This document shows, in pieces, positions 21,474 through 62,254 of a stretch of 64,000 nt of DNA (positions within the stretch are counted from its first letter, which is position 1; each line of letters starts with the position of its first letter). Below the pieces are notes generated by a model. The model did not search any database. It saw only the letters and a program-made list of their open reading frames with translations, and was not told the origin of the DNA. This DNA comes from an uncultured bacterium (GTDB taxonomy: Bacteria > Bacteroidota > Ignavibacteria > Kapaibacteriales > UBA2268). The stretch covers positions 1,515,219-1,579,218 of the forward strand of contig OW818654.1 in the NCBI GenBank assembly GCA_942492935.1. The letters run 5' to 3'. Both the position numbers and the translations under genes were made by a program.

Positions 21474-21557
21474 TTTAATAGTCTGTTGATAAAATAAAAA
21501 TTTAATCTTCTATCAAGTGGTTAAAGCACCTGAAAGATGATTAAATTTATACTTTAT
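21474..21557. other. Candidate attL of the integrated element (imperfect copy of the 62159-62254 sequence; 21-bp identical core at 21537-21557)
   Basis: tttaaTagtctgttg … gtggTtaaagcac … ATGATTAAATTTATACTTTAT is matched in the same order at 62159-62254. Confidence 0.55.
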
Positions 21558-21881
21558 CAACAATTATTTAATTTATTAATGATATAAGAATCATTTTGAA
21601 TTTAATTATTAGAAAAGTAATAAACAATTTTAATTTTCATAACATCTTTGGGATATGTAGGATTAATAGGAATAGTATTTCGATAATCTATATAAATATA
21701 ATCATCATCATTTGAATACCAAATTTCATCAGTATATAGGGTGCCATCATCAAAGCAAAATTTTTTGTGGGGGGGGGTGGCTTCCCTATGTTTTTTTTTA
21801 TAAAAAAAAAAAATAATAAAATAATAATATTATAAAAAAAAAGTTATAAAAAAAAAAAAATATTTTTTTTTATATAATATA

Positions 21882-22037
21882 TGTTGTGTTGTTTTAATGG
21901 TTTTTTGGATAAAGTGTTACATATTCGACCCTAATATCTTCATTATCATCAATATAAGTTGGATTTTCAATTGTACATGAATTGATTATTATTGAAACAA
22001 AAATTATGAATCCTAACAAATATAAATTCTTTTTCAT
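21882..22037 (-). CDS. Small lipoprotein (51 aa), possibly the N-terminal part of a gene disrupted by the homopolymer tract at 21760-21900
   Basis: MKKNLYLLGFIIFVSIIINSCT… is a lipobox-like signal. A coding-looking fragment (…FCFDDGTLYTDEIWYSNDDDYIYIDYRNTIPINPTYPKDVMKIKIVYYFSNN*) continues downstream at 21602-21770 after the G9/T11/A13 tracts. Confidence 0.35.
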
Positions 22038-22234
22038 TTTTCATTCTCCAAATTAATAAACAAACATACTTACGTTACAAACAGTAATTATATTGTGTTA
22101 TAATTTTTTGTGTGGCTTGTATGTCTGCAATATCCGCATCTATTCTATGTTTTGTATTTTTTTTGTTCTGTTATTATACGTTGTTATTCGTTACTCTGTG
22201 TTTTGGTCGTTGCAATTACGTTGCAATTATTTTT

Positions 22235-23344
22235 TCAATTTACATATTTCCCGAGTTCATCACTATCTGTATAAGCATAATATTTCATTACTGTATCTAA
22301 ACTATCTCTTGATAATTTGCTAACTATTTGAGGAGTTAATTTTTCTGTATATAACCATTCTGATATTCTTGTTTTTCGCAAAGTATGAATACAACGACCA
22401 TAGACTGCTTTTCGTTTTCTTTCTATGCCTGATATATTCATTTGTTTTGTGTTCCCATCTCCTACGGTATATTTTGGAATATTTAATGCTTCCAATCCCT
22501 TATTAAACCTATAGTCAATCGTTCTTGAATAATCTGATATGTTGAATATTTTACCTTTGCTTTCTTTCCTACTTTCTACTTGGTCAAATATATTTTTCAA
22601 TTTATCTGTCAATGGAAATTTGTCGGGCTTGTTACCAAATTTTGATTTTTCAAACATTATACTTTGTCTGTAATCACCATCTGTATTTAAGACTTGGTCC
22701 CATTCCATATTAACCGCTTCATTTTTACGCAATGCACAAATATAGATAGTTTGTATTAATAGATAAAATTGATAATTCTTTTCTTGCCAATAATCAAATA
22801 TTTTTTTTATTTCCTCTGGAGTATATATTTCAATTATTTTTTCTGTTTTTTTAGGTTTTAATGTTTTAATAATTGGATTTTTCCGCATCCATTCTCTTTC
22901 GATACAGTAATTGAAAAAACTTGATAACCTAATTAAATTAACCGTTGCCGTTTTTGAAGCGTGATTTCGTTTCAATAAATTATTTTCTATATGCAGAGTA
23001 ATTTTATTATCGTCATTCAAAATTAAATCTTCTGTAATATATGATTTGAATGAATAAATGTATTGCTGAAGTGTGTTTTTATGCTTAGTATTTTTCGATT
23101 GCTCAATGAAGATTTTGAACGCTTGAATGATTGTTACAGGATGATTTTCATTTCTGAAATGTTCTGGGCTTTCACTTTCTGCAATTATATCACCTGCGAT
23201 TTTACGATTTTTACGATTATAAATCAAACCGCAGGATTTCATTCTATTGCCTACTTTGTACCATATAATGCTCTTTTTACCACGAACAAAAAACCGTCCT
23301 TTACAGCCGGGCATTGAGTACGGTTTTTCTGGTGCTTTTTCCAT
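22235..23344 (-). CDS. int: Tyrosine site-specific recombinase (phage integrase family)
   Basis: The C-terminal catalytic region contains …GRCIHTLRKTRISEW (the H-x-x-R box) and …LDTVMKYYAYTDSDE, which carries the catalytic Tyr. An N-terminal SAM-like domain is present. 369 aa. Confidence 0.85.
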   Translation of the reverse strand: MEKAPEKPYSMPGCKGRFFVRGKKSIIWYKVGNRMKSCGLIYNRKNRKIAGDIIAESESPEHFRNENHPVTIIQAFKIFIEQSKNTKHKNTLQQYIYSFKSYITEDLILNDDNKITLHIENNLLKRNHASKTATVNLIRLSSFFNYCIEREWMRKNPIIKTLKPKKTEKIIEIYTPEEIKKIFDYWQEKNYQFYLLIQTIYICALRKNEAVNMEWDQVLNTDGDYRQSIMFEKSKFGNKPDKFPLTDKLKNIFDQVESRKESKGKIFNISDYSRTIDYRFNKGLEALNIPKYTVGDGNTKQMNISGIERKRKAVYGRCIHTLRKTRISEWLYTEKLTPQIVSKLSRDSLDTVMKYYAYTDSDELGKYVN

Positions 23345-23802
23345 TATATGTAATATACTTTAACAGTTATATCATACCATATATTATTCTTTTTAAATAT
23401 ATAAAATATATGATAATTAGAAGAATATTTATCATACAGTTTATAATTTACACGAGCAATATATTTGATATCTTCATATATTAACTTCCCCTCCGAATAT
23501 TTCAATTCAGAGAATCTAACATCAACACCACAATATTGATTTCCTACAAAAGAATATATTTTTTTTGCAACTTCCTGCGTTAATTCATCGCCAATTAAAT
23601 TGGATGTATCTATCAGTGAATTTAGATATTTACTTAGTGATATATCCCAATAACCAGAATAACCTGTCGCAATTAATTCTTTTTTTTGTATTTCATATTC
23701 CTTAGCATCCAAGTCCATTTGTGATACATTTGGACCCGTTGCCTCTTCCGAGCAACTAATAAACATTACTGCTATTGCAATAATTAGTAACAACTTTTTC
23801 AT
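23344..23802 (-). CDS. Prophage-encoded lipoprotein (moron; possible superinfection-exclusion candidate)
   Basis: MKKLLLIIAIAVMFISCSEE is a lipoprotein signal with a Cys lipobox. It lies between the integrase and the repressor-like genes. Confidence 0.5.
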   Translation of the reverse strand: MKKLLLIIAIAVMFISCSEEATGPNVSQMDLDAKEYEIQKKELIATGYSGYWDISLSKYLNSLIDTSNLIGDELTQEVAKKIYSFVGNQYCGVDVRFSELKYSEGKLIYEDIKYIARVNYKLYDKYSSNYHIFYIFKKNNIWYDITVKVYYI

Positions 23803-24188
23803 TGTTTTAAATTCCTATATGTTTTTAAAAACTCTAATAATTGACGAATTTCATTTTGATACATTTTTATTTTTTCTTCTACTTTTTTCTCAATTTCATC
23901 ATCGTAATAATCACCTTCACGCATCATTAAATTACTATCTGGAATAGTTTGCTCTTCATAATTTGCAACTGCACTATTAAATCTTTGTTCTGTCTGATAA
24001 CGATTTAATAACCAATTCATATCCAATTTTGGTGCTATTTCTGCTATTCTCACTAAATCAATATTATTTTTTTTAATCCAAGAATATAGAGTGCTGTTAG
24101 ATATATTCATCATCTCTGCTAATTGAGCTGGATTATCACAATCATAATATTTATATAATTTATTCACTATGGAAATTGTTTTTATCAT
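23799..24188 (-). CDS. HTH DNA-binding regulator, repressor-like; paralog of the next gene
   Basis: …NPAQLAEMMNISNSTLYSWIKKNNIDLVRIAEIAPKLDMNWLL is a helix-turn-helix with the same layout as 24185-24586. It is transcribed away from the Xis-like gene. Confidence 0.55.
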   Translation of the reverse strand: MIKTISIVNKLYKYYDCDNPAQLAEMMNISNSTLYSWIKKNNIDLVRIAEIAPKLDMNWLLNRYQTEQRFNSAVANYEEQTIPDSNLMMREGDYYDDEIEKKVEEKIKMYQNEIRQLLEFLKTYRNLKQ

Positions 24189-24586
24189 TTCATTTCGCTA
24201 TATGTTTTTAAAAAATCTTTTAAGGTTTTTATTTTCGCTTCTAAAATTAAAATTTCATTTTGAATAGATTTTTCAACACTATTTTCTGAATTTTTTAATT
24301 GCTGTAAATTCTCTTCCATATTATCTATTTCACGTTTGTAATACTGTTGAGTAGGATTTGTCGATACATAAACATCATTCTTCACTGGTTCTATTCCCAT
24401 TAACCAATTTAAATCAATCTTATTATTAATCTGCATTATTCGCATTAAATCAATATCCCTTTTTTTTGTCCAAGTATAAATTGTACTGACAGGAATATTC
24501 ATTTTACGTGATAAATCTGTTGGATTATCGACTTCATAAAGCGTAAATAACCGTTCTAATACCTTTTTAAATTGTTCCTCGTTCAT
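24185..24586 (-). CDS. HTH DNA-binding regulator, repressor-like; paralog of the previous gene
   Basis: …NPTDLSRKMNIPVSTIYTWTKKRDIDLMRIMQINNKIDLNWLMG. It is the first gene of the leftward operon at the divergent switch. Confidence 0.55.
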   Translation of the reverse strand: MNEEQFKKVLERLFTLYEVDNPTDLSRKMNIPVSTIYTWTKKRDIDLMRIMQINNKIDLNWLMGIEPVKNDVYVSTNPTQQYYKREIDNMEENLQQLKNSENSVEKSIQNEILILEAKIKTLKDFLKTYSEMK

Positions 24587-24812: not shown

Positions 24813-25100
24813 ATGAGTGAAATTATTAGATGGTACAGCATACCAGAAGCAAGCAAAATGACAGGTCTTGATGATGAATTTATTCGTCAAGCAATTGCTC
24901 AAAAGCTACTTATAACCGCTAAGACAGGGCGTCTCGGTAGTAAGGAAATTATTTCTAATGTTGAATTGAATCGTTTTTCGATGCAACTTCAATATGGTAA
25001 AAAATTCAAAAATGCAAAATTACAGGCAAGGGAAAACACGAATATTCAAAACGAAAATGCGTTTCATAAGCAACTCGATGATTTATTAGCAACAGTATAG
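24813..25100 (+). CDS. Excisionase/MerR-type HTH protein (Xis-like)
   Basis: …WYSIPEASKMTGLDDEFIRQAIAQKLLITAK… is an excisionase-family HTH pattern. It is the first gene of the rightward early operon and is preceded by the SD-like sequence TAGGAG. Confidence 0.5.
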   Translation: MSEIIRWYSIPEASKMTGLDDEFIRQAIAQKLLITAKTGRLGSKEIISNVELNRFSMQLQYGKKFKNAKLQARENTNIQNENAFHKQLDDLLATV

Positions 25101-25459
25101 GTGATGATATGAATGAGAAAATTTTAGCAACAATATTACTTTTCAGTTTTTTTTTAATAATTGTATTTGCTTATTGTTTTTCGATGTATTTGGAATATTT
25201 GGAATATAAAGAATTAAATAATTTTAAAAAAGAATATTATATTAAATTTATTAAAGAGAAAATAAAAGATGATACAAAATAATCAAAAACCTGTGTTAGA
25301 CTTCCCGAAAATGAAAGAACTGAAGCAAGAGCATTTTGATTGGCAAACTATTAATTTTTTTCATAATATGTCAATCTGTGCTATTAGTGAAACACACAAG
25401 AAAATTTATGCTCAAGTTTATAAATTACTCAATCCAGTAAAAAATTTATAGGTGAGAAA

Positions 25460-25747
25460 ATGAAAATTAAATTTGAAATAAAGAAAGAAATTGAAGTTGA
25501 TTTCTATGGGCAACATTGCAATTCTCAAAGTGGATTTTGTCAGTATTTGTTCGTATCACATATAACTACGCAAGCTCAATGTTTGTTGTTTACTAATACT
25601 TTGCATTACGAACCTGCAAATTACATTAAACGATGTGAAAAATGTATCAGATATTTTGATACTGAATTAATGACAATTAACATAGAAAAAGAAAAAGATG
25701 TGTTATTTACTGAAATGAGTAAAATAGAAATTAAAAAATCAACATAG
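25460..25747 (+). CDS. Hypothetical early protein, Cys-rich
   Basis: ORF in the compact co-directional early operon. An SD-like sequence is upstream. Confidence 0.4.
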   Translation: MKIKFEIKKEIEVDFYGQHCNSQSGFCQYLFVSHITTQAQCLLFTNTLHYEPANYIKRCEKCIRYFDTELMTINIEKEKDVLFTEMSKIEIKKST

Positions 25748-25926
25748 CCGAAGGAGTGAGAAAATGAATGACAAAATTGAATCTGAAATGAAGAAAAATA
25801 AAGAGACAATAATACGTATCGGAAAAAATTTGAAAGATTTAGGAGTGATTAAAATGCAAATCAAAGGAATCAAAAAAAACACAATTGTAAAAAAAATTAT
25901 CAAATAAAGAGCCGAAGGAATAAATT

Positions 25927-26115
25927 GTGAAACTCACTTGTGAAACTTGCAATAAGCAATATGAATTTGAAGATGATATGGATAAATTTCCATTAGAAAT
26001 GAAATGCAATTGGTGTCCAGTTTGTGAAGATACTGCTACAGATGTTTATTTTGAGTGGTATGTAGATATTAACAAGCAAATTACAGATGATCCAAATCAA
26101 ATAGGTTTGTTTTGA
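25927..26115 (+). CDS. Small zinc-ribbon protein
   Basis: CETC…CNWCPVC is a pair of CxxC motifs. Confidence 0.45.
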   Translation: MKLTCETCNKQYEFEDDMDKFPLEMKCNWCPVCEDTATDVYFEWYVDINKQITDDPNQIGLF

Positions 26116-26153
26116 TTATGAATTATTGATTATTAATTATTTCGGAGTTAGAA

Positions 26154-26546
26154 ATGTTTGAAATAAAATCTTATGAAGAGATGGAAAGACTTCCTCTCTC
26201 AAAAAAATATGAATATGCTGCATATTGGCAGGCAAAGTTAGAAGATGGAAATAAATTAATTACAAGAGATTTTAATAAAATTGATTGGTATGATGTTCTT
26301 TATTATGTTGAGACAGGTGCTATCTATGATTTAAAACTTACACAAAATTTAATTCCACTTGATGACAGCGACCAGTTGATTGGTGAAATTATTGTTGATC
26401 CACGTTCTAATGAACGGTTTATGATTATAGAACAAGATAAACTATTTGTACACGTAAAAAATTATATAATATCGTATCGTTATCTTCAAGAATATTACAC
26501 CCGCCTTGATGGTTCACGTTTTGAAAAATTAGCAGTGGAAGAATAA
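26154..26546 (+). CDS. Hypothetical early protein
   Basis: ORF preceded by an SD-like sequence, in the operon. Confidence 0.4.
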   Translation: MFEIKSYEEMERLPLSKKYEYAAYWQAKLEDGNKLITRDFNKIDWYDVLYYVETGAIYDLKLTQNLIPLDDSDQLIGEIIVDPRSNERFMIIEQDKLFVHVKNYIISYRYLQEYYTRLDGSRFEKLAVEE

Positions 26547-26759
26547 CCTATGGAAAAATATATAATTACAGAAGGGCAATTATCAATGTTAAGAAGTAGA
26601 TATTTAATACTTGCAGAACAATTAGAAAATGCAATTAACAGTGATAAAAGTGGTTTAGCATTAGGTTTTGAACTTGGTAGGATACACAGAAACATTTTTT
26701 TATATTGTTCGGAAATTCTTGATATTCAATTTGAAAATATTTTTACAGAGGAATAATCT

Positions 26760-27104
26760 ATGCAAAAACTAAAAATATATATTTCCGGCAAAATGAATGG
26801 TCTTAATAAAGAGCAATATTTTATGCTGTTTTTTGATAAGTATAATGAATTAAGAAAAAAATATCCTGATGCAATTATTATCAATCCTGTTTTTGTGGGC
26901 TACGAACTTGAATTAATTATTGAATTGAAATATGGTCGCAAGCCCACATACAGCGAATATTTGATGTATGATTTATATTATTTGTCAATGTGTAATGCTA
27001 TTTATATGCTATCTAATTGGCATAATTCAAATGGTGCTAAGACAGAGCTTGCTTATGCTCAAGCGTGTAATTTCCAAATTTACTATCAAGACTTGGAGGA
27101 GTGA
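26760..27104 (+). CDS. DUF4406-family protein (nucleoside 2-deoxyribosyltransferase-like fold)
   Basis: IYISGKMNG near the N-terminus and …NWHNSNGAKTELAYAQACNFQIYY at the C-terminus match the DUF4406 pattern common in phages. Confidence 0.55.
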   Translation: MQKLKIYISGKMNGLNKEQYFMLFFDKYNELRKKYPDAIIINPVFVGYELELIIELKYGRKPTYSEYLMYDLYYLSMCNAIYMLSNWHNSNGAKTELAYAQACNFQIYYQDLEE

Positions 27105-27289
27105 TGTACTTATCATTCAAAGACAAAGAACGCAGGGACAACCAAAATAGAATTAACCAAACTGTTACAAAATTAGTTACTGTTAAATCTAAATGTTGCA
27201 ATGCCAAAATTATTTATTACGATAAACAAAATTTCGCATATACACAAGATAGAATTTGTTCAAAATGCAAGGAGATTGTTTCTATATGA
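27101..27289 (+). CDS. Small zinc-finger protein
   Basis: CCNAK…CSKC. ATGA-type overlaps occur at both ends. Confidence 0.4.
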   Translation: MMYLSFKDKERRDNQNRINQTVTKLVTVKSKCCNAKIIYYDKQNFAYTQDRICSKCKEIVSI

Positions 27290-27741
27290 GAAAGACTGAA
27301 TATCACGATTCGCACTTGCAAGCATTTGAAAATGTAGTAAATTATGTTTGCAAAAATTTAAAGTTAGACAGACAGAAATTATTTTCTAAAGGTCGTTATC
27401 GTTACAGTACTTTTGGTAGATATTTCATAGCTTATTTGTTGAATAAAAAAGAAAAATTAGATGTATCATTAATTGCAGATATGATGAATACGGATAGAAC
27501 AAATATTTACGATTTTGTTTTATCGGCAGAATATAATTGTAAGCAAATTGAAAAATATAAAAAATTAATTAATGATTATATTCCAATTATGCCAATTAAT
27601 GTGTATTGCACAGTATTTCTAACAAATGATAGATTGTTTATTCAGAAAAAAGTGTGTACAGATGATGTAATATTGAGACATACAATTGAAAAGATTGAGG
27701 AGCAGGTTGATATTTATAATTTAATACAGAGTGCAAAATGA
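27286..27741 (+). CDS. Hypothetical early protein (possible DnaA-C-terminal-like HTH)
   Basis: Start chosen at the ATGA overlap with the upstream gene. …RYSTFGRYFIAYLLNKKEKLDVSLIADMMNTDRTNIYDFV is HTH-like. The similarity is weak. Confidence 0.35.
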   Translation: MRKTEYHDSHLQAFENVVNYVCKNLKLDRQKLFSKGRYRYSTFGRYFIAYLLNKKEKLDVSLIADMMNTDRTNIYDFVLSAEYNCKQIEKYKKLINDYIPIMPINVYCTVFLTNDRLFIQKKVCTDDVILRHTIEKIEEQVDIYNLIQSAK

Positions 27742-28082
27742 AAGATTTTTATGTAGAAGAATTAAAAGTATGTGTAGGTGCAATTCTGGCTGATATTCGT
27801 TTGCATCCACATACTTCATTGGAATATCGGTTTACAATTGTATTTGGTTTGTTAGATATGCTAATGTTGATTGACACAGATAATGAATATTTGTACAGCA
27901 AAGATTATGGAGTTTGTTTGCAAACTTCAATGAAACGACAGAAGGATTTTACACGATTACGTGATGAATGTCATTTGTATAATTACTATTCACAAACAGG
28001 CAGGAGTGATAGAGTTATGAATTACTTAGCCGAAAGATTACAAAATTTTCAATTAATATGGTTTCAGCAATGGCAAAGGTAG
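27738..28082 (+). CDS. Hypothetical early protein
   Basis: ATGA overlap with the upstream gene. Confidence 0.4.
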   Translation: MKDFYVEELKVCVGAILADIRLHPHTSLEYRFTIVFGLLDMLMLIDTDNEYLYSKDYGVCLQTSMKRQKDFTRLRDECHLYNYYSQTGRSDRVMNYLAERLQNFQLIWFQQWQR

Positions 28083-28422
28083 AAAAATGGTAACAGTTAC
28101 TACAACAACGACTGGGACAAGCCCAACATCACCAAGCATTGATATAAATTTTAGGTATGAAGAAATTTATAAAACTCGTGGTTTTTGGTGTGGGACAGGA
28201 ATATGGAACTCCCAAAATAATCACAAGAATACAAAAGTTTCGATTGAAAAATTAATTAAAAGAAATAAGCAAAAATTTAAAAAAGGGTAGAAAAATGTTT
28301 GTAATTAATATGATTTTTGTATTTGCTTTGGGATTGGCTTTTATATTTACAGCTTACAAAATAGGTCATTATTTTTTGAAGGAAAAACCTCAAAAAAAAA
28401 AAAAAAAGAAAAAAAGCAGGAA

Positions 28423-28893
28423 TTGACTGAAGCAGAGGATTATGTTAGTGAAGATGACAAAAATTTAACTCGTGAGATAACTCGGGCTTATTCAAATTAT
28501 CTTTTTGAATTAGCAGAAATTGAGAAGCAAAAGAGATTAGCATTAGAAGCAGAGAAATTACAAAAGAAAAAAAATGATGTAGAGAACAATCCTGATTTAT
28601 GGGAAAGAGTATTAATTGAAAACAGGGATATGATGTTTGATTTACGTGGTTACGGTGCGTGTAGTGGTTTCAGTGCAATTGGTAATTATAATTATAATCC
28701 AATAGGTGGTTACGATGAAATGTTTATTAAAAAAGATAGTGCAGAGTATGAGCTGTACAAAACATCTAATATATGCTTGGACTTTCATAATGCAGATAAT
28801 GTACTGTATATTCGCTTTATTCCAAGCAATACAAGGGCAAGAGATATACACACAATTACTGGGAGTGGTTGTGTTTTTCGTCCTTCGCATTGA
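28423..28893 (+). CDS. Hypothetical early protein
   Basis: The ORF follows an A15-rich homopolymer at 28389-28413 that ends a small membrane ORF. Confidence 0.4.
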   Translation: MTEAEDYVSEDDKNLTREITRAYSNYLFELAEIEKQKRLALEAEKLQKKKNDVENNPDLWERVLIENRDMMFDLRGYGACSGFSAIGNYNYNPIGGYDEMFIKKDSAEYELYKTSNICLDFHNADNVLYIRFIPSNTRARDIHTITGSGCVFRPSH

Positions 28894-28934
28894 ATTAAAA
28901 ATTAATGATTTAAATAATAAAATGGAGCTTAAAA

Positions 28935-29189
28935 ATGACTGAATTGGATTTTTATAAATTTATCACTAAAAACAAACTTGAATATCATTGGGAAATAAAT
29001 GCAGGTTATGAAGATGTTATTTTATTTCTTAATTATTCACAGTTAAAAGATATTGATAAACTTCTTTCACGTGATTTATTTGATGAAGGTGGTATAATAT
29101 GCCATTGGACGAATGGCTGTATAGGTTTTTGGGCAAGTGTTATTGCGGATCATTATGATTTAGATTTAACAAAAATTTTCGAAAAATAA
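28935..29189 (+). CDS. Hypothetical early protein
   Basis: ORF in the operon. Confidence 0.4.
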   Translation: MTELDFYKFITKNKLEYHWEINAGYEDVILFLNYSQLKDIDKLLSRDLFDEGGIICHWTNGCIGFWASVIADHYDLDLTKIFEK

Positions 29190-29636
29190 TAGGAAAAGGG
29201 TAGAAAAATGATAACAGTATATATAATAACACATATCATATTTTCAACATTTGTGTTTTTTGTGATGATAAATATTAACTATACAAAAGAATTTGCTTGG
29301 AATTATGATGATAAGAAAATATTAATATGGACTATCATTATAACAGCATCTATTGCAGGACCAATATTTTTAGTAATAGCAATATTTAATAAAATAATTA
29401 AACACGTAAGGAGCAAAAATGTGTAATGAATCTGAAATACCAGAAGAATTAATTGCTAAATATATAGTTGAATTGATGAGAGAAGATCCAATAAAATTAA
29501 CACAGTATGTATTAAGTGTAATTGCACAAGATATTTACAAAGCTAATGTAGGTACATTTACTTTTTCTCAAAATATGGATTTAGACGGCAAACGAATTAA
29601 TGTAAAAATTGTTGGTAAAATTAAGGAATTATAAAA

Positions 29637-53405: not shown

Positions 53406-53436
53406 GCCACACCGGAGGAGTTCCGGTAAATTTTCC

Positions 53437-54789: not shown

Positions 54790-54800
54790 TCTTCTTATCC

Positions 54801-55253
54801 TTATAATAGTTTTTTAACTGCATAGTGAGACGCAAAGCCTGTTCCTGTACCAACAAGCAAAGATGTTATCCACCCTGTTTTAAATCCATATTTAGCAATA
54901 GCTGTTGCACCTGCACCGAGAGCAACTGAAGTAATCATTTTCATATCATCGGGCATAGAAAGGGATGAAAACTTTGCCACTTGTGGTGCTGGTTCACCTG
55001 TAACCGGCGGGTAGTCCGGTGTTGGTAAATTATTAACCGGTACTGCTTCCTGCGGTCCATATACTTGCGGTGCATTATTCGGATTGGCTGGAGATTTTAT
55101 TCCAATTTGATCCTGAACCCATTTATCACCTTCATTTATGATACCACCAGCGATGTTGTTCCCGGCTTTTTCTATTCCACTCCAAATGTTATCGAAGAAA
55201 TTTTCCTCATCTTGCAAGGAAAATACTTCTGGAGTATTAGAAAATCTGTTCAT
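54801..55253 (-). CDS. Membrane protein (C-terminal TM helices), proline-rich centre
   Basis: …MITSVALGAGATAIAKYGF…WITSLLVGTGTGFASHYAV is hydrophobic. Confidence 0.4.
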   Translation of the reverse strand: MNRFSNTPEVFSLQDEENFFDNIWSGIEKAGNNIAGGIINEGDKWVQDQIGIKSPANPNNAPQVYGPQEAVPVNNLPTPDYPPVTGEPAPQVAKFSSLSMPDDMKMITSVALGAGATAIAKYGFKTGWITSLLVGTGTGFASHYAVKKLL

Positions 55254-55269: not shown

Positions 55270-58200
55270 TTAACAATCATTACAATCACAATCATCTGAA
55301 TTGCAGTCGCAATCACAATTTTTTCTTTTTCTATTTTCAGTAACCGGTGCATATTCAAATACAGTTTTTTTGTATTCTTCAACCATTGCCGGAATTTTCT
55401 TTTTATCACAATCAGTACATTCACCACTAATATTACTTTGTGGCATATATGGATCTACACTTGGTATATTTGGAGTAACTTGTGGAGCATAAGGAGTAAC
55501 ATCTGGTACATAAGGAGTTCCTTGTGGTACGTAAGGTGGTATAACATCTGCTGGTACGTAAGGAGTAACTTGCGGAACATAAGGTTCTACAGTAGGTACA
55601 TAAGGAGTAACTTGCGGAACATAAGGCTCTACATTTGGTACATACGGAGTTACTTGCGGAACATAAGGTTCTACAGTTGGTACATACGGAGTTACTTGCG
55701 GAACATAAGGTTCTACAGTAGGTACATAAGGAGTAACTTGCGGAACGTAAGGTTCTACAGTTGGTACATAAGGAGTAAAACCACTTTGAGCTACAAAACC
55801 GCTATTACTTTCTTTAATTATAATTACACAATTTGCAGTATCTACCTCGTAAGCTGTACCATTAATCACCACAAAATACTTGCTTGTACCTCCAACTTGT
55901 CTATATGCTTTAATTCGTGTAGTTGGCTGTTCATCATTCAATGTTACTTTGAATGGTGGCAATGTTGGCATTGCTCTGTTTTGTGTATCTGTCGGACTTG
56001 GCATTAACACATCTTGCGGAGGAGTGATGAACAAATTAGTATTTGGATTTGCTGGAGATTTAATTTCCGGCATAACTCTATTTGTATTGTCCGCAGGAAT
56101 AATATTAACAGTTGGAAATACGCTTGTAACGGGATTATTTACTGGACTTTGCATAATTTCATTGCCTACTGATTGAGTAAACAATGGATTAGTTGGAATA
56201 ATCGGCATTGTTGTTAAAGTTGCTTTCGCTGACTTTGGAACAAACCAATATTGACCATCAATAATTTCAATACAAGGAGGTAAATTATAATCTACACTAC
56301 CTGAATAGCCACTAAATCCACTTTGTACCAAATAACCGCTGTTACTTTTTACATCAAAATTATTAACATCCTTACTTGAATATCCTGATACATTTGTATT
56401 AGTGTTTGTATTAGTATTTGTATTTGTATTAGTATTTGTATTAGTATTTGTATTGGTGTTTGTATTAGTATTTGTATTGGTATTTGTATTGGTATTTGTA
56501 TTAACATCTTTATCAATACGAATATCTTTATTTACAGTAACCGTTGTATTTTCACTAACACAAGACCGTTTCATTGCATCATAAGTATATCCCGGAGGAC
56601 AGTAAATGATTTTCTTCTTAACTTCTTTTTCTAATTCAATTTTAAAACATTCTGCTTCTTCTGGACAGATATTTGGAGGAAGAATAAATATATCAGTTGA
56701 AGTACCTAAAGCATTTGCTTGACTTTTTAATGAATCATATAAAAATGGTTTAAATATTGAATTATTTGGAATATGCCCGAATACACTTTGAATTAATCCT
56801 GCGTGAATTTCTGCGTTACTACTGCCATCTTTCCATCCTAAATTTGTATCGTAAGCATTTTTATTCCCAAGTATAGCAATTGCAAATTTATCTATACTCG
56901 GCATCATTGGTAATATAGTTTGATTTGAGCCAGCAATAAATAAATCTCTTACAATTGGAATATCAGTAATAAATTGTTGGTCTGCAATTGCACTTACAAG
57001 AGTTTGAGAATCTAAACTTCTACCTATTTTATTAATCATTTGCATAGTTTTAGTATTTTCAACTAATTTCTGCACATATTTAAAACTTTTAGAATCAGTA
57101 TATTGTGATAAATCAATATTAATGGCATTACCAATATTGCTATAAGCATTTCTTATAGCTAATCCTAATTCTTCATTTATACCTAATTTCTCAAATTCTA
57201 CTACTGAACCTTTCCATATTTTATCTAATGCCACTTGTGCATCTTGAAGTATTGGACCAAATGTTGTTTTCAATGATTTACCAACACCATCAGCCCAAGT
57301 CATAATCCCACCTTTAATATTTTCTGGAATTATATAATCTGCTGTTTGAGCAAGTGTTGTAATTGCACTAAAGGCGTTTATTTCACCACCATTAGCATAA
57401 TTTTGTAAGTTTTGAGATATTCCTTTTAAAATAGCAGGGTCAAACGCATTAGCTAACCCGGGTATTCCGGGTAATATACTTGCTACAGTTGAAATAACAG
57501 TTGCTAACTCCCTTTTCCACTTGTCGCCATCTTGCTTGTTAATAACCCAAACGAAATTAAATGGTATTTTCTTTTTAAACTGATAGCCCATTGTAAATAG
57601 TTCTACTTGTTTAATCATACCCGGCAAATTTCCTCTTTGGCTCATAATCATATCTTTTAATGCTTGAGCTTTTCCTTTCTCCCAACCAATTGATACTGCT
57701 TTCATATATGGATTTCTTGTATTTCTATCATCCATAGACAATGCAAATGAACCTGAAGAGCTAAATGCTTCGTAACCACCAATACGGTCAGCCATTCTTT
57801 CTGCCCAACCGTTACCAGTACTGCTATCCCAATTTAATTCTACTAAACAAAAATCTGGACCAATTAAACCACTTTCTACTAAATATTTAGTTTGTGCATT
57901 TGGCTGTGATAATATGAAATGTAAATTTCCATAATTATCTTTAAATATTCCAAATCCCGTATGTGTTTCTGATGGTCTTTGGCTATTGAAAACAGCACCA
58001 CGAGGATCACCACCTGCATAACTATTGCTTGCTTTTGTTATATCAGCTAATACTCTTTTATTTTTTAATTGTGAATAATGCAATAAATTACCAGTAGATG
58101 GTACTTTAATTGTATATTCTTTACAATTCGGAATAGGCGGACAAGGTATTGGCTCTTTCGCTGGTGGAGGTGGAGGAGGAGTTTCAACTACATCAGTTGT

Positions 58201-59004
58201 GCCACTATAACCACTATAAACATTTATTCCACTATAGCCACTACTGCCCGATTTGCCAACATTAATTTCATCTTTTACAATTTCACTTTCAGTAATTTTT
58301 GCTTGAAAACAATCACGACCTTTGTAAGGTTTGTATGTTCCTGAACAATTTTGCTTTTCAATATGTGAAAATAATATGCCTGTTGTTCTTTGATAGCAAT
58401 GTGAGATTGGATATTCATAAACTGCAATACCATCTTGAGTAGTATCGCCATCACCAGACAAGCCCGTAGTACCAACTTTTACATTACCTTCAACTGTAAT
58501 AAATCTTGCATCATCAACATAAATCACTATTCCCATATGTCCCGAATTGTTTGAACTTGTAGAATAACGATAAAATATTGACCCAACAGCTGGGTAGTAA
58601 TCTGTTTGATAAACTGATTGTAATTTTTTAATGGTATCGAATGCGTTACCTGATAAGTTTCTTGGGAATTTATCAATTGATTGGCAACCTATTAATTTTG
58701 TTGCTTCTCTAATTACATAAGCTGGAAAATAAACACACCACGCTTCGCCTTTAGCTTTTTCACTTGGGGTTAAGCCCTTATAATCTCTAATAAATGTTTC
58801 TACACAACTATTTGGCTCTGTAAAATTTCCATTTCCGTCATATTTTTCATAACATTGTGCTTCCGCCCACCAACGAGCTACGCAAACTATTTGATTACCA
58901 ATTTCTGACTGTGTTTTCTTGGTAAAAAAATACTTGCTCAATAGTGTATTATCTACAAGAGCAATGCTTTTAGCTAAATTACTTGGGTAAGCTGAATAAG
59001 CCAT
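55270..59004 (-). CDS. Giant multidomain protein (1244 aa) with N-terminal CHAP peptidase domain, poly-Pro linker, large central domain, (TN)~20 and 14-aa PYVPxVxPYVPQVT repeats, and a Cys-rich tail
   Basis: CHAP Cys context …GEAWCVYFPAYVIREATK…. CHAP His context …NSGHMGIVIYVDDARFITVEGNVKV…. PPPPPPAKEPIPCPPIP. NTNTNT… x20. Five to six PYVP repeats. C-terminal CDCDCNSDDCDCNDC. Confidence 0.7.
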   Translation of the reverse strand: MAYSAYPSNLAKSIALVDNTLLSKYFFTKKTQSEIGNQIVCVARWWAEAQCYEKYDGNGNFTEPNSCVETFIRDYKGLTPSEKAKGEAWCVYFPAYVIREATKLIGCQSIDKFPRNLSGNAFDTIKKLQSVYQTDYYPAVGSIFYRYSTSSNNSGHMGIVIYVDDARFITVEGNVKVGTTGLSGDGDTTQDGIAVYEYPISHCYQRTTGILFSHIEKQNCSGTYKPYKGRDCFQAKITESEIVKDEINVGKSGSSGYSGINVYSGYSGTTDVVETPPPPPPAKEPIPCPPIPNCKEYTIKVPSTGNLLHYSQLKNKRVLADITKASNSYAGGDPRGAVFNSQRPSETHTGFGIFKDNYGNLHFILSQPNAQTKYLVESGLIGPDFCLVELNWDSSTGNGWAERMADRIGGYEAFSSSGSFALSMDDRNTRNPYMKAVSIGWEKGKAQALKDMIMSQRGNLPGMIKQVELFTMGYQFKKKIPFNFVWVINKQDGDKWKRELATVISTVASILPGIPGLANAFDPAILKGISQNLQNYANGGEINAFSAITTLAQTADYIIPENIKGGIMTWADGVGKSLKTTFGPILQDAQVALDKIWKGSVVEFEKLGINEELGLAIRNAYSNIGNAINIDLSQYTDSKSFKYVQKLVENTKTMQMINKIGRSLDSQTLVSAIADQQFITDIPIVRDLFIAGSNQTILPMMPSIDKFAIAILGNKNAYDTNLGWKDGSSNAEIHAGLIQSVFGHIPNNSIFKPFLYDSLKSQANALGTSTDIFILPPNICPEEAECFKIELEKEVKKKIIYCPPGYTYDAMKRSCVSENTTVTVNKDIRIDKDVNTNTNTNTNTNTNTNTNTNTNTNTNTNTNTNTNTNTNVSGYSSKDVNNFDVKSNSGYLVQSGFSGYSGSVDYNLPPCIEIIDGQYWFVPKSAKATLTTMPIIPTNPLFTQSVGNEIMQSPVNNPVTSVFPTVNIIPADNTNRVMPEIKSPANPNTNLFITPPQDVLMPSPTDTQNRAMPTLPPFKVTLNDEQPTTRIKAYRQVGGTSKYFVVINGTAYEVDTANCVIIIKESNSGFVAQSGFTPYVPTVEPYVPQVTPYVPTVEPYVPQVTPYVPTVEPYVPQVTPYVPNVEPYVPQVTPYVPTVEPYVPQVTPYVPADVIPPYVPQGTPYVPDVTPYAPQVTPNIPSVDPYMPQSNISGECTDCDKKKIPAMVEEYKKTVFEYAPVTENRKRKNCDCDCNSDDCDCNDC
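55440..55800. repeat. 42-bp tandem repeat, about 6-8 units (encodes the PYVPxVEPYVPQVT repeats)
   Basis: ggttctacagt(a/t)ggtacata(a/c)ggagt(a/t)acttgcggaac(a/g)taa units. Confidence 0.8.
56395..56520. repeat. Hexanucleotide (TN-dipeptide) tandem repeat, about 20 units
   Basis: (gtattagtatttgtattggtatttg…), period 6. It encodes (NT)n in the 1244-aa protein. Confidence 0.85.
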
Positions 59005-59815: not shown

Positions 59816-60319
59816 TTATTTATACCTTTTTTCTCTAATTACTTTTAATTCCTGACCACCAAAACCCTGTGCTTTTCTCGTTGCATCAAGTACAATCCAT
59901 TTTCCACTTTCAAATTCTGCTTCACATACAACGTGAGTGTAACTGTGTTTTCGCCACGCAATAGTTTTGATTAAACAATTAATTCCATTAGCTTTCAGAA
60001 GTGAGCAAATCAATGTAACCATCTCATCGCAATCCATATATTGAGTTTGTACACCCGATAATATATGAACAGGTGCGGTTAAATGTTCAATTCCTTGAGG
60101 ATCAGCTTTATATGGAAAATTTTGCCAAACATAATCATAAACCGATTTAATAGTGTCGAATTTATTACCTTTTTTCAAACTTTGTGCTAATTGCTTCACA
60201 ATCGGAGCAGAATAATCTCTATTAATCAATTTCCATATTTTCGCAACAATTTTATCAGTAATTTCATCTTGTGAACCTGTTAAAATATCCGTTGTTTTCT
60301 GTGGTGATGTTTGAGACAT
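59816..60319 (-). CDS. Transglutaminase-like cysteine peptidase domain protein
   Basis: …YMDCDEMVTLICSLLKANGINCLIKTIAWRKHSYTHVVCEAEFESGKWIVLDAT gives a Cys…His…Asp spacing and context typical of the transglutaminase-like core. Confidence 0.55.
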   Translation of the reverse strand: MSQTSPQKTTDILTGSQDEITDKIVAKIWKLINRDYSAPIVKQLAQSLKKGNKFDTIKSVYDYVWQNFPYKADPQGIEHLTAPVHILSGVQTQYMDCDEMVTLICSLLKANGINCLIKTIAWRKHSYTHVVCEAEFESGKWIVLDATRKAQGFGGQELKVIREKRYK

Positions 60320-60323: not shown

Positions 60324-61004
60324 TTAATCCGTTAATTTCTTAGATACATTTCTTAATGCTGGTCCAAAATAGAATAATCCACCCAAAACAACAGCACCAC
60401 CCAAAACCCAACCAATATTATTAAAACCCCAGCCAAGAGCATTAGTTATATCCCAATTTTTATAACTGTCTGCATCGGGAGGCGTATCTCTCATTTCAAC
60501 ATTAGCTTTAGCATTTCGAGGATTTATTATTTCATTTGTTGGAATTGTGCCGTCATCAGTCGCCCAAGCAAGATGATCCAAAATTATTCTAACTTGATTA
60601 TCTTTATATGTAGAAATTTGAGCAACTTTTTTTATCATATTCCAAATAGCTTTATCGCCATTTTTGGCAAGCCACGAATGATATACAGGCATTGATGAAT
60701 CTTTTTGTTGAAGATTGACATAAGCATTAATAACTTTTTGTACTGCTTCTAATCGTTGTTCACGAGGACTAACAGGAGACCAAAATACAATTTTATCTAC
60801 CCAACTAAGTGAGTTCCATTCTACCCTTGCCCATACAGTACAAATAGCTTTATCATAAGTGGTAATAGTCGCATAAGCAACACCACATTCTAATTCAGCT
60901 TTAAATGGATAATCAGCTAAACCATTGAAAGGAGCATTTTCAAACTGCCTTGCAAAGATCGCTAAATTTTGGTTTTCTTGACCGTTCATTTCTTGGTAAT
61001 TCAA
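60324..61004 (-). CDS. Hypothetical protein with C-terminal TM helix
   Basis: …IGWVLGGAVVLGGLFYFGPAL is hydrophobic. Confidence 0.4.
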   Translation of the reverse strand: MNYQEMNGQENQNLAIFARQFENAPFNGLADYPFKAELECGVAYATITTYDKAICTVWARVEWNSLSWVDKIVFWSPVSPREQRLEAVQKVINAYVNLQQKDSSMPVYHSWLAKNGDKAIWNMIKKVAQISTYKDNQVRIILDHLAWATDDGTIPTNEIINPRNAKANVEMRDTPPDADSYKNWDITNALGWGFNNIGWVLGGAVVLGGLFYFGPALRNVSKKLTD

Positions 61005-61104
61005 GCCCGTAATCCTTCAACTGTTTACGCAATTCCCTTTCGTGATTTTTCTCACTTTTGGCAATTGCATCATATTTTTTAACTTTACTCACACTTATAA
61101 GTAG

Positions 61105-61440
61105 TTAGAAAATATTTGTTGAATAGTCGTAATCTTGTAACTCTTCTGGAATGAATGACTTAGAATTTTTTTCTGTGTGAATTTTTGTGAATTTATTCCT
61201 AAACTGTCTAAGATTGGAATAAAATTTGTCGGGAGAATTAAGAATGAAACCGCAGTTAGCTTTTTTCTTTTTGCACTTATGATAAAATTGAAAACAAGCG
61301 TCTTTCAGAGACAGATATTTGCCGTCATTAATCCACTCATCAATAATGGCTACAGTAGTTATTTTTAATCGAAAAGTAACAGGATTCTCTGACTTCATTG
61401 TAAAAACCGTTGCAATTCCGTTGCAAAAAAGTAATTGCAA
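61105..61440 (-). CDS. Hypothetical protein, the first gene of the long leftward block
   Basis: 111-aa ORF. No ORF lies upstream for about 1.5 kb. Confidence 0.35.
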   Translation of the reverse strand: MQLLFCNGIATVFTMKSENPVTFRLKITTVAIIDEWINDGKYLSLKDACFQFYHKCKKKKANCGFILNSPDKFYSNLRQFRNKFTKIHTEKNSKSFIPEELQDYDYSTNIF

Positions 61441-61462
61441 AACTACAACGAAAAAACAAAAA

Positions 61463-61494
61463 AAGCAAGTAGAATTTTCAACTACTTGCTTTTT
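61463..61494. terminator. Hairpin with A-run and T-run flanks (bidirectional terminator-like) at the edge of a 1.5-kb non-coding tract
   Basis: AAGCAAGTAGaattttcaaCTACTTGCTT followed by TTTT. Confidence 0.5.
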
Positions 61495-62158
61495 AATGAC
61501 TTACAATTTTTATTTTTTATTTTTTAATGCCGTTTTTTGTACTTTACGAGTAATATTCACTACAGTAATTATGTTTCAAAATAAATTGTGTAATTCGTAA
61601 CTACCCAGTCCCTAAATGAAAAAATTACGTGCTATTTACGGCTAACTATTTTATAAATCATCCAATGTTTTGAAAAAATAGGATATTTGACTACAAGATT
61701 TGATTAGAAAGATGTATTCTTATAATTGAATTTTTATTATGAAAAATCCTTGAACATCCCAGCGGGATTGAATAGTTCAAATACATATTCATCACCTACG
61801 GTGTTGCAGGAGGCGATGGGAGATTCTTCAGTTAAAAACATTAATTCCCTACGGGAATTTCAAGGAATTTTTAAAAAATAACAAAAATTCTAAATGATCT
61901 ATAAGCGACTGAGTGGTTACAATTTATTTTGTTAAAAATTATAAAAATTTAAAATATTCCTTGAAAATCCCATAGCGTTTAAATTACTTTTAAATAATTT
62001 CAGGAAAAGGTAACTCGTAGGGACAAGTCGCGACCTGTCTTAACAAAAGACCTGTCTCTACATAAGACCAATCCTGCATTTTATTATTTTTACAAAAATC
62101 CAAGTTGGGTATTCATGGAATTTTTTTTATTTTTTTCAGAAATTTAGTATTATTAGTT

Positions 62159-62254
62159 ATTTAACAGTCTGTTGCTCAAGTAATATAGAAATGCTCTTGT
62201 TCGTGGCTAAAGCCACGAGTTGATTACTGAATCTGAAACACGTGGCTTTAACCA
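62159..62254. other. Candidate attR (longer version of the 21474-21557 sequence; two internal hairpins; 21-bp identical core at 62233-62253)
   Basis: tttaaCagtctgttg…CGTGGCtaaaGCCACG…CACGTGGctttaaCCACGTG…ATGATTAAATTTATACTTTAT. It is bracketed by AACAGTCTGTT at 62163 and AACAGACTGTT at 62287. Confidence 0.55.

Follow-up and report, generated by a model that had tools for sequence, protein, structure and literature searches.

What kind of mobile element carries phage-like lysogeny and lysis genes over some 40 kb and encodes no recognizable terminase, portal or tailed-phage capsid? We addressed this question for an integrated element within a 64-kb stretch of bacterial DNA, called the window here. 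As judged from its sequence and a structural model, it is quite likely that the element is the provirus form of a tailless dsDNA virus that is temperate and has a single-jelly-roll capsid, similar to Salisaeta icosahedral phage 1 (hereafter SSIP-1).

Ends and flanking DNA of the element

An exact 21-mer direct repeat, ATGATTAAATTTATACTTTAT, was found at 21537-21557 and 62263-62283, bounding ~40.8 kb. No further copy was present elsewhere in the 64-kb window with up to two mismatches permitted, and a shuffle control gave 0 matches in 100 shuffles. The 21-mer forms the 3′ terminus of a larger direct repeat that is imperfect (left ~21474-21557, right ~62161-62283), the right copy of which has a 40-nt insertion relative to the left copy.

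21474..21557, no strand: attL, imperfect direct repeat whose end is formed by the 21-bp exact core (21537-21557)
62161..62283, no strand: attR, imperfect repeat that includes the 21-bp exact core (62263-62283)

Because the 21-bp core is the end of this longer repeat, the coordinates 21474-62254 given by the original prediction were essentially right, and the right end is now set at 62283. The left flank carries a ParE-like toxin gene (20939-21223), while on the right the element lies immediately upstream of dnaA, which starts at ~62.9 kb. Both flanks look like DNA of the host, whose chromosome is low-GC and Ignavibacteria-like.

Lysogeny, replication and early genes

The integrase gene sits just inside the flanking 21-bp repeat, and its presence, proposed earlier, was borne out by two Pfam matches that are weak but typical, both falling just under the curated cut-offs. 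The predicted repressor/Xis switch was confirmed in its repressor part by two CI-type genes divergent from the rightward early operon, with the presence of Xis unconfirmed.

22235..23344 (-): tyrosine integrase, 369 aa (Pfam Phage_integrase 1.2e-5, Phage_int_SAM_5 2.3e-4)
23799..24586 (-): tandem pair of HTH proteins of the CI-repressor type, 129 and 133 aa long (Pfam Phage_CI_repr 1.4e-6 and 1.1e-5)
24813..35710 (+): early/middle operon of ~30 small genes (ORF list, Pfam and PHROGs scans), including the next five
26760-27104 (+): DUF4406 gene
30140..31078 (+): DnaD-like helicase loader / replication initiator, 312 aa (phrog_2514 3.3e-18)
31579-32202 (+): methyltransferase gene
32247-33392 (+): GT2 glycosyltransferase, 381 aa
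33941-34414 (+): GT9-like protein, 157 aa
36099..37410 (-): reverse-strand insert of low GC (21%), containing a J-domain protein gene (36589-37140)

An iteron-bearing replication gene was also correctly foreseen: the DnaD-like gene matches phrog_2514 and contains tandem repeats of a 12-nt unit (13.8 copies, 30491-30661), the probable origin of replication. A related contig, L019, shares the GT2 and the 157-aa protein of the early operon (52%) and encodes a 42% identical homolog of the J-domain protein at 36589-37140.

Organization of the late operon

The late operon runs leftward over ~21 kb (61.0 to 39.8 kb) and ends at a strong terminator. In order of transcription, its features are:

60324..61004 (-): 226-aa protein with a C-terminal TM segment, product of the first of the conserved late genes (conservation and TM prediction)
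59816..60319 (-): transglutaminase-like (cysteine protease fold) protein, 167 aa (Pfam Transglut_core 6.9e-9)
55270..59004 (-): 1244-aa protein with N-terminal CHAP (Pfam 2.4e-6), (Asn-Thr)n and PYVP tandem repeats and a Cys-rich tail
54127..55253 (-): 220-aa Gly/Ala-rich protein (54127-54789) and a protein of 150 aa whose C-terminus is hydrophobic; both are conserved and lie upstream of the putative capsid gene
53437..54072 (-): single-jelly-roll protein, 211 aa, putative major capsid protein (predicted structure)
53345..53436 (-): two hairpins and a U6 tract, terminator or attenuator (-28 kcal/mol, z = -4.49)
52066..53329 (-): 266-aa and 153-aa proteins directly downstream of the putative capsid gene (conservation in related loci)
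51510..52196 (-): SLT lytic transglycosylase (Pfam SLT 1.6e-12)
50423..51510 (-): 101-aa and 260-aa (coiled-coil) proteins (conservation in related loci)
50091..50426 (-): 111-aa protein with three TM segments (TM prediction; conserved in L027)
49489..50082 (-): secreted CHAP-like hydrolase, 197 aa (weak Pfam CHAP match)
48126..49523 (-): collagen-like protein, 465 aa, with a globular C-terminal domain (Pfam and PHROGs scans)
43564..47475 (-): collagen-like protein, 1303 aa (Pfam Collagen 7.5e-76)
41666..43323 (-): four small proteins, three with transmembrane segments (TM prediction)
41058..41669 (-): peptidoglycan hydrolase of the CHAP type whose C-terminal tail is hydrophobic (Pfam CHAP 2e-10)
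40438..41061 (-): RecA/RadA-like P-loop ATPase, 207 aa, homolog of SSIP-1 gp40
39785..40413 (-): J-domain-like protein (108 aa) and 93-aa protein of net charge +27 (profile scans, sequence features)
39738..39772 (-): strong hairpin and T-run at the late-operon end, where early and late transcription converge

The lysis toolkit claimed earlier was found as the SLT protein, three CHAP proteins (one of them a weak match) and the 111-aa protein with three TM segments, which may be either holin-like or a virion membrane protein. The SLT protein is 40-61% identical in related loci L001, L027, L029 and L032, and it probably starts in reality at about residue 40. As for the CHAP proteins, the one at 41058..41669 is conserved in L019 and L027, the 197-aa protein is matched in L027 by a CHAP-domain homolog (43%), and the 1244-aa protein has a 1347-aa counterpart in L027 and is the positional equivalent of the giant virion protein gp43 of SSIP-1. 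The 1303-aa collagen-like protein, to which a 659-aa collagen-like protein corresponds in position in L001, is a candidate fibre or spike, and the 465-aa one a candidate receptor-binding fibre.

At least 7 late proteins, all small, have hydrophobic segments according to TM prediction, and those encoded at 41666..43323 are candidate virion-membrane proteins. The 108-aa J-domain-like protein is conserved in L019, and the 93-aa protein is a candidate for genome condensation. Downstream of the putative capsid gene, the 266-aa gene recurs in all of L001, L023, L027, L029 and L032, and the 153-aa gene in L001, L023, L029 and L032, with only a positional 146-aa counterpart in L027. PDB and profile searches gave no match for these two proteins, which are candidates for penton or minor capsid proteins.

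A single-jelly-roll capsid candidate and homologs of SSIP-1 virion proteins

Two adjacent beta-rich proteins had been put forward as capsid candidates, and this proposal held for one of them. Structure prediction gave a model of the 211-aa protein consisting of one beta-sandwich, a single jelly roll, while its 220-aa neighbour is Gly/Ala-rich; no profile relationship to the 211-aa jelly-roll family was found for the neighbouring 153-, 220- and 266-aa proteins. The closest structural matches of the model were capsid proteins of tailless, membrane-containing viruses, and its top BFVD match was I1ZBH9, an unnamed viral protein of exactly 211 aa. The dedicated terminator described after this gene is real (z ~ -4.5), and a terminator of its own fits a highly expressed structural gene. 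The suggestion of a tectivirus- or corticovirus-like virus was unsupported, since the model has a single sandwich and no late ORF matched double-jelly-roll capsid families in Pfam or PHROGs.

Two further late proteins connect the element to SSIP-1. The 207-aa ATPase, the sole P-loop protein of the late operon, is homologous to gp40 (hhalign 97.7%, P 1.7e-12; blastp 4.8e-9; tblastn against SSIP-1, 26% identity with 78% of the query covered), and both match AAA_25-type models. Its greatest similarity is to the RadA/Sms RecA domain (3e-10) and AAA_24/AAA_25. The open reading frame had been singled out for structural checks, in which an A32/FtsK-HerA packaging ATPase was to be looked for; it does encode a P-loop homolog of gp40, but one that is RecA/RadA/KaiC-like by sequence and not A32/FtsK-HerA-like. 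The gp40 protein belongs to the SSIP-1 virion and is predicted to be its packaging ATPase (PMC4124505). We infer a packaging role for the 207-aa protein from SSIP-1 alone, because the RecA/RadA/Sak4-like family is also found in tailed phages, as recombination or replication proteins. The 167-aa protein is related to gp34 (blastp 29% over 123 aa, 2.4e-11; hhalign 97.5%), and a Transglut_core domain is present in both; gp40 and gp34 are each annotated as SSIP-1 structural proteins.

For the capsid protein itself, the profile of its family (~65 clusters) aligned with SSIP-1 gp45/gp46 over 149 collinear columns with P 0.0053, a weak signal with an hhalign probability of only 6.8%; P was above 0.1 for all the other family pairs compared, and an HMM search returned no significant match. 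Alternatively, the element could belong to an independent new jelly-roll-capsid lineage that obtained its ATPase and transglutaminase-like genes by horizontal exchange or common recruitment, with a capsid protein not homologous to gp45/46 and nearer, for example, to the Portogloboviridae type. Transglutaminase-core domains are widespread, and the 211-aa model resembles the single-jelly-roll capsid protein VP4 (PDB 6oj0), with 11% identity in the structural alignment. We consider this explanation unlikely in view of the two virion-protein homologies with SSIP-1, the equal length of 211 aa, the similar local gene order and genome size (40.8 vs 43.8 kb), and the same host superphylum. In addition, the top BFVD match has exactly this length, and the gp45/46 comparison stands apart from all control pairs.

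Distribution of the late module and nature of the element

The late-gene order is conserved and collinear in six other independent loci, including those whose capsid proteins share only ~21-28% identity. One of the six is on a 3.0-Mb assembled contig and is presumably a second chromosomal copy, and the module also occurs on short metagenomic contigs from many samples. When the window proteins and one related capsid protein were used as queries, no relative was retrieved from IMG/VR viral contigs. The element exposes a virus family absent from the phage databases searched.

Could the element be non-viral, or no longer viral? It might, for instance, be a remnant that has become defective, a particle or secretion-like system that has been domesticated, or an island for collagen-like surface fibres in which the jelly roll is a lectin or adhesin. 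Surface structures would equally account for the large number of cell-wall hydrolases, membrane proteins and collagen-like products, carbohydrate-binding proteins often have jelly rolls, and the capsid-family members tested were absent from IMG/VR viral contigs. This is nevertheless very unlikely, given that the lysogeny, replication and late modules look intact with no obvious pseudogenes, two SSIP-1 virion proteins have homologs here, the top structural matches are capsid proteins and a terminator is dedicated to the putative capsid gene. The spread of the module over short metagenomic contigs of many samples points the same way, and Pfam searches detected no conjugation genes (VirB4, coupling protein, relaxase).

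As the original prediction claimed, no Pfam or PHROGs match to terminase, portal or HK97 capsid was obtained among ~28 late and ~20 early ORFs. Only six ORFs of the element exceed 300 aa (the integrase, the replication protein, GT2, both collagen-like proteins and the CHAP protein of 1244 aa), and all are otherwise assigned, leaving no protein of that size that resembles any of the three; the longest unassigned ORF has 266 aa. An ordinary tailed prophage with structural genes too divergent for recognition is hardly credible: most late proteins do lack any database match, and PHROGs 'tail fiber' families match the 465-aa protein (via collagen repeats only), but terminase, portal and HK97 families match nothing, unassigned ORFs of at most 266 aa are too short for a large terminase, portal or tape-measure protein, the conserved and putatively abundantly expressed capsid candidate is a jelly roll and not an HK97 fold, and the small-gene layout is the same across the module in six loci.

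Proposed life cycle of the probable provirus

Our preferred reading remains an SSIP-1-like provirus. The jelly roll, the gp40-homologous ATPase and the lack of any tailed-phage hallmark support the earlier view of a non-tailed, possibly membrane-containing virus, and we believe that an internal membrane is probably present. Upon induction, the element would be excised at the 21-bp core and replicate from the iterons. The 211-aa protein would build an icosahedral shell around a vesicle in which the small membrane proteins are embedded. Packaging of the DNA would fall to the RecA-like ATPase, which in SSIP-1 is part of the virion, and the +27 basic protein may aid DNA condensation. Collagen-like proteins could act as vertex fibres in adsorption, and peptidoglycan may be breached at entry and exit by the SLT enzyme and the CHAP enzymes, including the one within the 1244-aa protein.

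Comparison with known viruses

Tectiviridae, Corticoviridae and Autolykiviridae have double-jelly-roll capsid proteins of 270-400 aa, genomes of 10-15 kb and an FtsK/HerA ATPase, none of which the element has, and the protein-primed PolB of tectiviruses is also absent from it. Helvetiavirae-type viruses (Sphaerolipoviridae, Simuloviridae, the Thermus phages P23-77/IN93) have two distinct capsid proteins beside an FtsK/HerA-type ATPase and 16-30 kb genomes (PMC12642351, PMC12643093, bioRxiv 10.1101/741942). Whereas their single-jelly-roll capsid genes lie side by side and adjacent to the ATPase gene, the 40.8-kb element has one demonstrated jelly-roll gene with a RecA/RadA-like ATPase ~12 kb away, and no FtsK/HerA (A32-like) ATPase was found next to the capsid gene in its late operon. 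Portogloboviridae (Sulfolobus polyhedral virus 1, VP4) have an archaeal host and a linear genome of ~20 kb; they show no sequence similarity to the 211-aa protein and no demonstrated shared ATPase or other genes.

A broader proposal, which we offer tentatively and would sooner doubt than assert, is that this provirus, the ~65-cluster capsid family and SSIP-1 form an undefined widespread group, of at least family rank, of temperate tailless viruses of FCB-group bacteria, with a single-jelly-roll capsid nearest to the fold of archaeal SPV1 VP4 and a virion ATPase of the RecA/RadA type, not the FtsK/HerA type. If true, the lineage would stand apart from Helvetiavirae and newly link bacterial and archaeal viruses of the jelly-roll type. 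Viral marker sets may be overlooking this group as well, given that the window proteins and the related capsid protein drew no relative from IMG/VR.

Under the preferred reading, SSIP-1 is the only cultured relative of the element, and a distant one, with only two or three proteins recognisably related at 26-29% identity. It is tailless, with an internal membrane, T=49 geometry and a circular genome of ~44 kb; its major capsid proteins are of two types, presumed to be single beta-barrels (PMC6356626, PMC4958249, PMC6260650). Several differences are apparent: SSIP-1 has two paralogous capsid genes (gp45/gp46) where one jelly-roll gene was found here, its giant protein gp43 carries methyltransferase and ParB_N domains instead of CHAP, its endolysin is GH108 in place of SLT and CHAP, and its scanned proteins gave no collagen-repeat match, in contrast to the two collagen-like proteins of the element. 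A hypersaline site yielded SSIP-1 as a free phage, while the element is integrated in a low-GC, Ignavibacteria-like chromosome. On the other hand, the 43.8-kb SSIP-1 genome has an annotated integrase and transcriptional regulator, as the element has an integrase and regulators, and both encode a RecA/AAA_25-type ATPase and a transglutaminase-core protein, which are virion proteins in SSIP-1. The capsid-gene candidates gp45 and gp46 encode 210 and 211 aa, compared with 211 aa here, and both genomes have the local order giant protein, ~220-240-aa proteins, ~211-aa gene(s), ~256-266-aa protein. An entirely new kind of integrative element had also been envisaged; SSIP-1, a tailless internal-membrane phage with an integrase, is a precedent, and therefore a 40-kb element of this type is rare and very divergent, not wholly new in kind. 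We place the element within the SSIP-1 kind as a very divergent variant, in a class that is rare and not unprecedented.

Integration site and host setting of the element

A 21-nt sequence is found in two identical copies, at 21537-21557 and at 62263-62283, and at no other place in the window; 100 shuffles gave 0 matches. It forms the closing part of a longer imperfect direct repeat, whose onset lies near 21474 on the left (attL) and near 62161 on the right (attR). With this exact 21-bp repeat at both ends and an integrase gene just inside the left one, the original prediction of an integrated element was borne out. The insertion point is located ~650 bp upstream of dnaA, presumed to be close to the chromosomal origin. 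Since no tRNA genes are present in the window, integration was not into a tRNA; an Rfam search of the whole window returned no RNA family. Just inside attR, at ~62203-62259, are two palindromes rich in GC, cgtggctaaagccacg and cacgtggctttaaccacgtg. The non-coding gap between attL and the integrase gene (21557-22235) contains long homopolymer and AT tracts, including a run of G (gtgggggggggtgg, near 21765), stretches of A/T at 21790-21870 and a TRF repeat of period 14 at 21804-21857.

The left 21 kb and the right end of the window, which has a GC content of ~28%, look like host DNA.

Features of the host flanks
7275-11311: ATP-citrate lyase, two-subunit (host gene)
12008-12973: IS110-family transposase (host gene)
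15550-17781: nitric oxide reductase, quinol-type (host gene)
20939-21223: ParE-like toxin, directly outside attL
62901-64000: dnaA, starting at ~62.9 kb, with DnaA_N and Bac_DnaA domains

Two-subunit ATP-citrate lyase suggests a reductive TCA cycle in the host. Its large subunit showed 92% identity to one MAG and 66-67% to MAGs labelled Ignavibacteriales or Ignavibacteriae, with relatives at 63-66% also among Chitinophagaceae and Holophagaceae MAGs, and on the basis of these relatives we take the host to belong to the FCB group and to be Ignavibacteria-like. Proteins of the host flank also carry T9SS-type C-terminal sorting domains. Just beyond attL, an 86-aa ORF with no Pfam match overlaps the ParE-like toxin gene (region 20939-21456), and is its probable antitoxin. 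Proteins of the element occurred a single time in the protein collection, on a 4.49-Mb NCBI contig.

Lysogeny, replication and early genes

Lysogeny and replication genes occupy the left part of the element, where the repressors and the iteron-bearing replication gene that had been predicted were both located.

Features of the early region
22235-23344: tyrosine integrase, just inside the left repeat
23799-24586: two CI-type repressor genes in tandem, divergent from the rightward small-gene block
30140-31078, rightward: DnaD-like helicase-loader/replication-initiator (phrog_2514, 3e-18)
31579-34414: methyltransferase, GT2 glycosyltransferase and GT9-like protein, in the early/middle region after the DnaD-like gene
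36589-37140: J-domain protein (DnaJ, 9e-8), in a 21%-GC island

The iterons consist of 13.8 copies of a 12-nt unit, TTGAGCAGTCAT, at 30491-30661, inside the coding sequence of the DnaD-like initiator. Between the integrase and the repressors, a 152-aa protein (23344-23802) with no Pfam match carries a lipoprotein-type signal sequence, MKKLLLIIAIAVMFISCSE, and may serve in superinfection exclusion or lysogenic conversion. The methyltransferase, GT2 and GT9-like enzymes may either alter the surface of the host or glycosylate virion proteins or the collagen-like ones. The run of rightward early genes is broken at 36000-37500 by the 21%-GC island, which lies on the opposite strand and encodes a 162-aa protein in addition to the J-domain protein. 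The last gene of the late operon encodes a second J-domain-like protein, and two DnaJ-like co-chaperone genes within one phage-like element are unusual.

Late operon

The late operon runs leftward from ~61.0 kb to 39785, and a strong hairpin with a T-run (39772-39738) marks its end.

Features of the late operon (leftward; Pfam matches except the first line)
39785-40111: second J-domain-like protein, last gene of the operon
40438-41061: P-loop, weak
41058-41669, N-terminus of 55270-59004 and, weakly, 49489-50082: CHAP
43564-47475 and 48126-49523: collagen repeats
51510-52196: SLT
59816-60319: transglutaminase core

The SLT and CHAP domains correspond to the lysis toolkit that had been expected. 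Also in agreement with the original prediction, no ORF among all those scanned matched terminase, portal or HK97 capsid families in Pfam or PHROGs, and the longest unassigned ORF of the element does not exceed 266 aa. Most late proteins had no match in PHROGs, and when the element was compared with GenBank phages by megablast, neither of its halves gave a match. Hydrophobic TM-like segments were observed in at least 7 late proteins, including one 3-TM protein, and a 93-aa late protein has a net charge of +27; we infer that these features are in keeping with a tailless virion that contains a membrane. Vertex fibres are a plausible role for the two collagen-like proteins, and collagen-like genes occupy an equivalent position in a related locus (L001). 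One murein hydrolase domain is embedded in the 1244-aa protein, an arrangement that resembles the virion-associated lytic enzymes of membrane-containing phages. The gene for this 1244-aa CHAP protein contains 7.8 copies of a 42-nt unit at 55447-55778, which encode peptide repeats of the form PYVPxVxPYVPQVT, and 18.5 copies of a hexanucleotide at 56392-56502, which encode (Asn-Thr)n. Both repeats could change in length by slippage, and thereby vary the protein.

A predicted single jelly roll in the 211-aa protein

For the 211-aa protein at 53437-54072, a word-indexed search of 5.8 billion proteins returned three relatives only, and HMMER, run exhaustively over 1.84 billion cluster representatives, returned 65 clusters, with lengths of 184-264 aa, nearly all ~200-230 aa. 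None of the 62 family members tested matched PHROGs, and tblastn against GenBank phages gave no match at E <= 1. When IMG/VR was scanned with the 211-aa protein, the 207-aa ATPase (40438-41061) and a related protein (P0031) as queries, zero relatives were found, and the sole match to gp46 of SSIP-1, the Salisaeta icosahedral phage 1, was SSIP-1 itself. Scanning with the capsid alignment yielded nothing in the genome collection and one 2.2-kb fragment in metagenomes. No significant match was obtained in PDB sequence-profile searches with the capsid family or the families of the neighboring 153-aa and 266-aa proteins.

AlphaFold2 run on a 4-sequence alignment gave a poor model (pLDDT 50.5), and was replaced by a run on a 62-sequence alignment, which reached a pLDDT of 91.4 and a pTM of 0.84. 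The modelled structure is one eight-stranded beta-sandwich with a long helix. We are confident in a single jelly roll as the predicted fold of this family, one of the two capsid folds that the original prediction had proposed looking for in this gene. Among the predicted viral structures of BFVD, Foldseek ranked an unnamed 211-aa entry, I1ZBH9, first (E 7.5e-6, probability 1.0), with capsids of CRESS-DNA viruses next; the length of I1ZBH9 equals that of SSIP-1 gp46. The dedicated terminator noticed earlier was also recovered: two hairpins and a U6 tract lie directly 3′ of the 211-aa gene (-28 kcal/mol, z -4.5), which fits a structural gene expressed above its downstream neighbors. Profiles of the 153-, 220- and 266-aa families were set against the capsid family and against gp44, gp47, gp48, gp41, gp53, gp37 and gp1 of SSIP-1, and since all P values were above 0.1, the comparisons identified no second capsid protein or penton.

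The ATPase and the relationship to SSIP-1

[quoted passage not shown] Its gp40 is a predicted packaging ATPase (PMC4124505). These and other facts on SSIP-1 were drawn from its GenBank record and later reviews.

In tblastn against GenBank phages, the 207-aa ATPase matched SSIP-1 gp40 with 26% identity over 78% of the query, supported by blastp (4.8e-9) and hhalign (97.7%, P 1.7e-12). Likewise, gp34 was matched by the transglutaminase-like protein at 59816-60319 (blastp 2.4e-11, hhalign 97.5%), and both gp40 and gp34 are annotated as structural in the SSIP-1 record. SSIP-1 gp45 (210 aa) and gp46 (211 aa) are paralogous (1.35e-12), and their genes come directly after those of gp43, a giant structural protein, and of gp44. 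This order parallels that of the window, where the 1244-aa protein is followed by the 150- and 220-aa proteins, the 211-aa jelly roll, and the 153- and 266-aa proteins. The giant proteins are only positional analogues, with CHAP in the 1244-aa protein and methyltransferase and ParB_N in gp43. Alignment of the 62-sequence capsid profile with a gp45+gp46 profile gave 149 collinear columns at P 0.0053, a weak match (probability 6.8%); the other nine family pairs among the five profiles, and 21 of 21 control comparisons of the 153-, 220- and 266-aa families with single SSIP-1 proteins, had P values of 0.12-0.86.

A search for an A32 or FtsK/HerA packaging ATPase had also been proposed for the element, and here the outcome differed. 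The 207-aa protein has Walker A (GPSFGGKSS) and Walker B (FVIMDS) motifs, its best match among PDB structures is RadA/Sms, in the RecA domain (3e-10), and Pfam assigned AAA_24/AAA_25 to it and AAA_25 to gp40. Judged by sequence it is RecA/RadA-like and not recognisably FtsK-, HerA- or A32-like, which sets the group apart from the PRD1 and sphaerolipovirus lineages. Because its tailed-phage relatives are annotated as Sak4-like or RadA-like, the putative packaging role is based on the presence of gp40 in the virion and on the place of the ATPase gene, where the late operon ends. The family raises the question of whether a RecA-type ATPase can package DNA into a membrane-containing capsid, replacing the FtsK/HerA enzymes of the PRD1 lineage.

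Conservation of the late-gene module

Gene neighborhoods were compared among related loci (L001/L002, L023, L027/L028, L029-L031, L032 and L035), over which capsid identity falls from 50% to ~21%. Their common order is transglutaminase-like, giant CHAP, ~150 aa, ~220-250 aa, capsid, ~150 aa, ~250 aa, SLT, ~260 aa, 101 aa, 111 aa, CHAP, fibre-like, hydrophobic-tail CHAP and ATPase. L027 sits on a 3.0-Mb assembled contig, and is presumably a second chromosomal copy. An ATPase relative (P0006) is encoded on the 40,455-bp metagenomic contig L019 (JGI 3300001765, MIS_1001117), the first 12.4 kb of which match the region where the end of the late operon meets the reversed early genes, with J-domain proteins and glycosyltransferase. 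Both J-domain proteins of the element are conserved there, and GT2 and a 157-aa protein show ~52% identity to their counterparts (11541-12427). Since L019 starts inside the late operon and almost equals the element in length, it may represent a relative, free or excised, whose complete genome is circularly permuted in the contig.

Proposed life cycle and comparison with known viruses

We propose that the element would integrate by tyrosine recombination at the 21-bp core upstream of dnaA and be silenced by the CI-type repressors. Induction would lead to excision, then replication from the iteron-bearing initiator gene, after which the late operon would direct a jelly-roll shell built on a protein-studded vesicle, with DNA loaded by the RecA-like ATPase. 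Adsorption would occur via the collagen-like fibres, and the cell wall would be opened by the CHAP and SLT enzymes.

To our knowledge, SSIP-1 has been alone in its kind since 2012, and its capsid fold has merely been presumed. In the literature on SSIP-1, proviruses, jelly-roll capsids and Helvetiavirae, we found no description of an SSIP-1-like provirus or of the 211-aa capsid family, and searches of IMG/VR, PHROGs and GenBank phages retrieved no tailless proviruses of this module type, SSIP-1 itself excepted. The model of the 211-aa protein offers a confident predicted fold for the probable capsid family of the SSIP-1 lineage. Our results also provide evidence for temperate, chromosome-integrating viruses, here upstream of dnaA and apparently again on the 3.0-Mb contig, and widen the lineage beyond a hypersaline Rhodothermota host, to take in Ignavibacteria-like bacteria and many metagenomes. 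The conserved late-gene module can be used as a search profile for tailless proviruses.

Among known groups, Portogloboviridae include the closest fold to the capsid candidate, SPV1 VP4, and nothing else ties the element to that family. The adjacent FtsK/HerA ATPase that defines Helvetiavirae was not found in the element, nor were the defining features of double-jelly-roll phages and of tailed phages. Two protein markers of an SSIP-1-like group, the gp40-type ATPase and the gp34-type transglutaminase-core protein, were found. Known here from sequence and predicted structure, the element resembles SSIP-1 and, more broadly, single-jelly-roll tailless phages; it is very divergent, yet SSIP-1 is a clear precedent.
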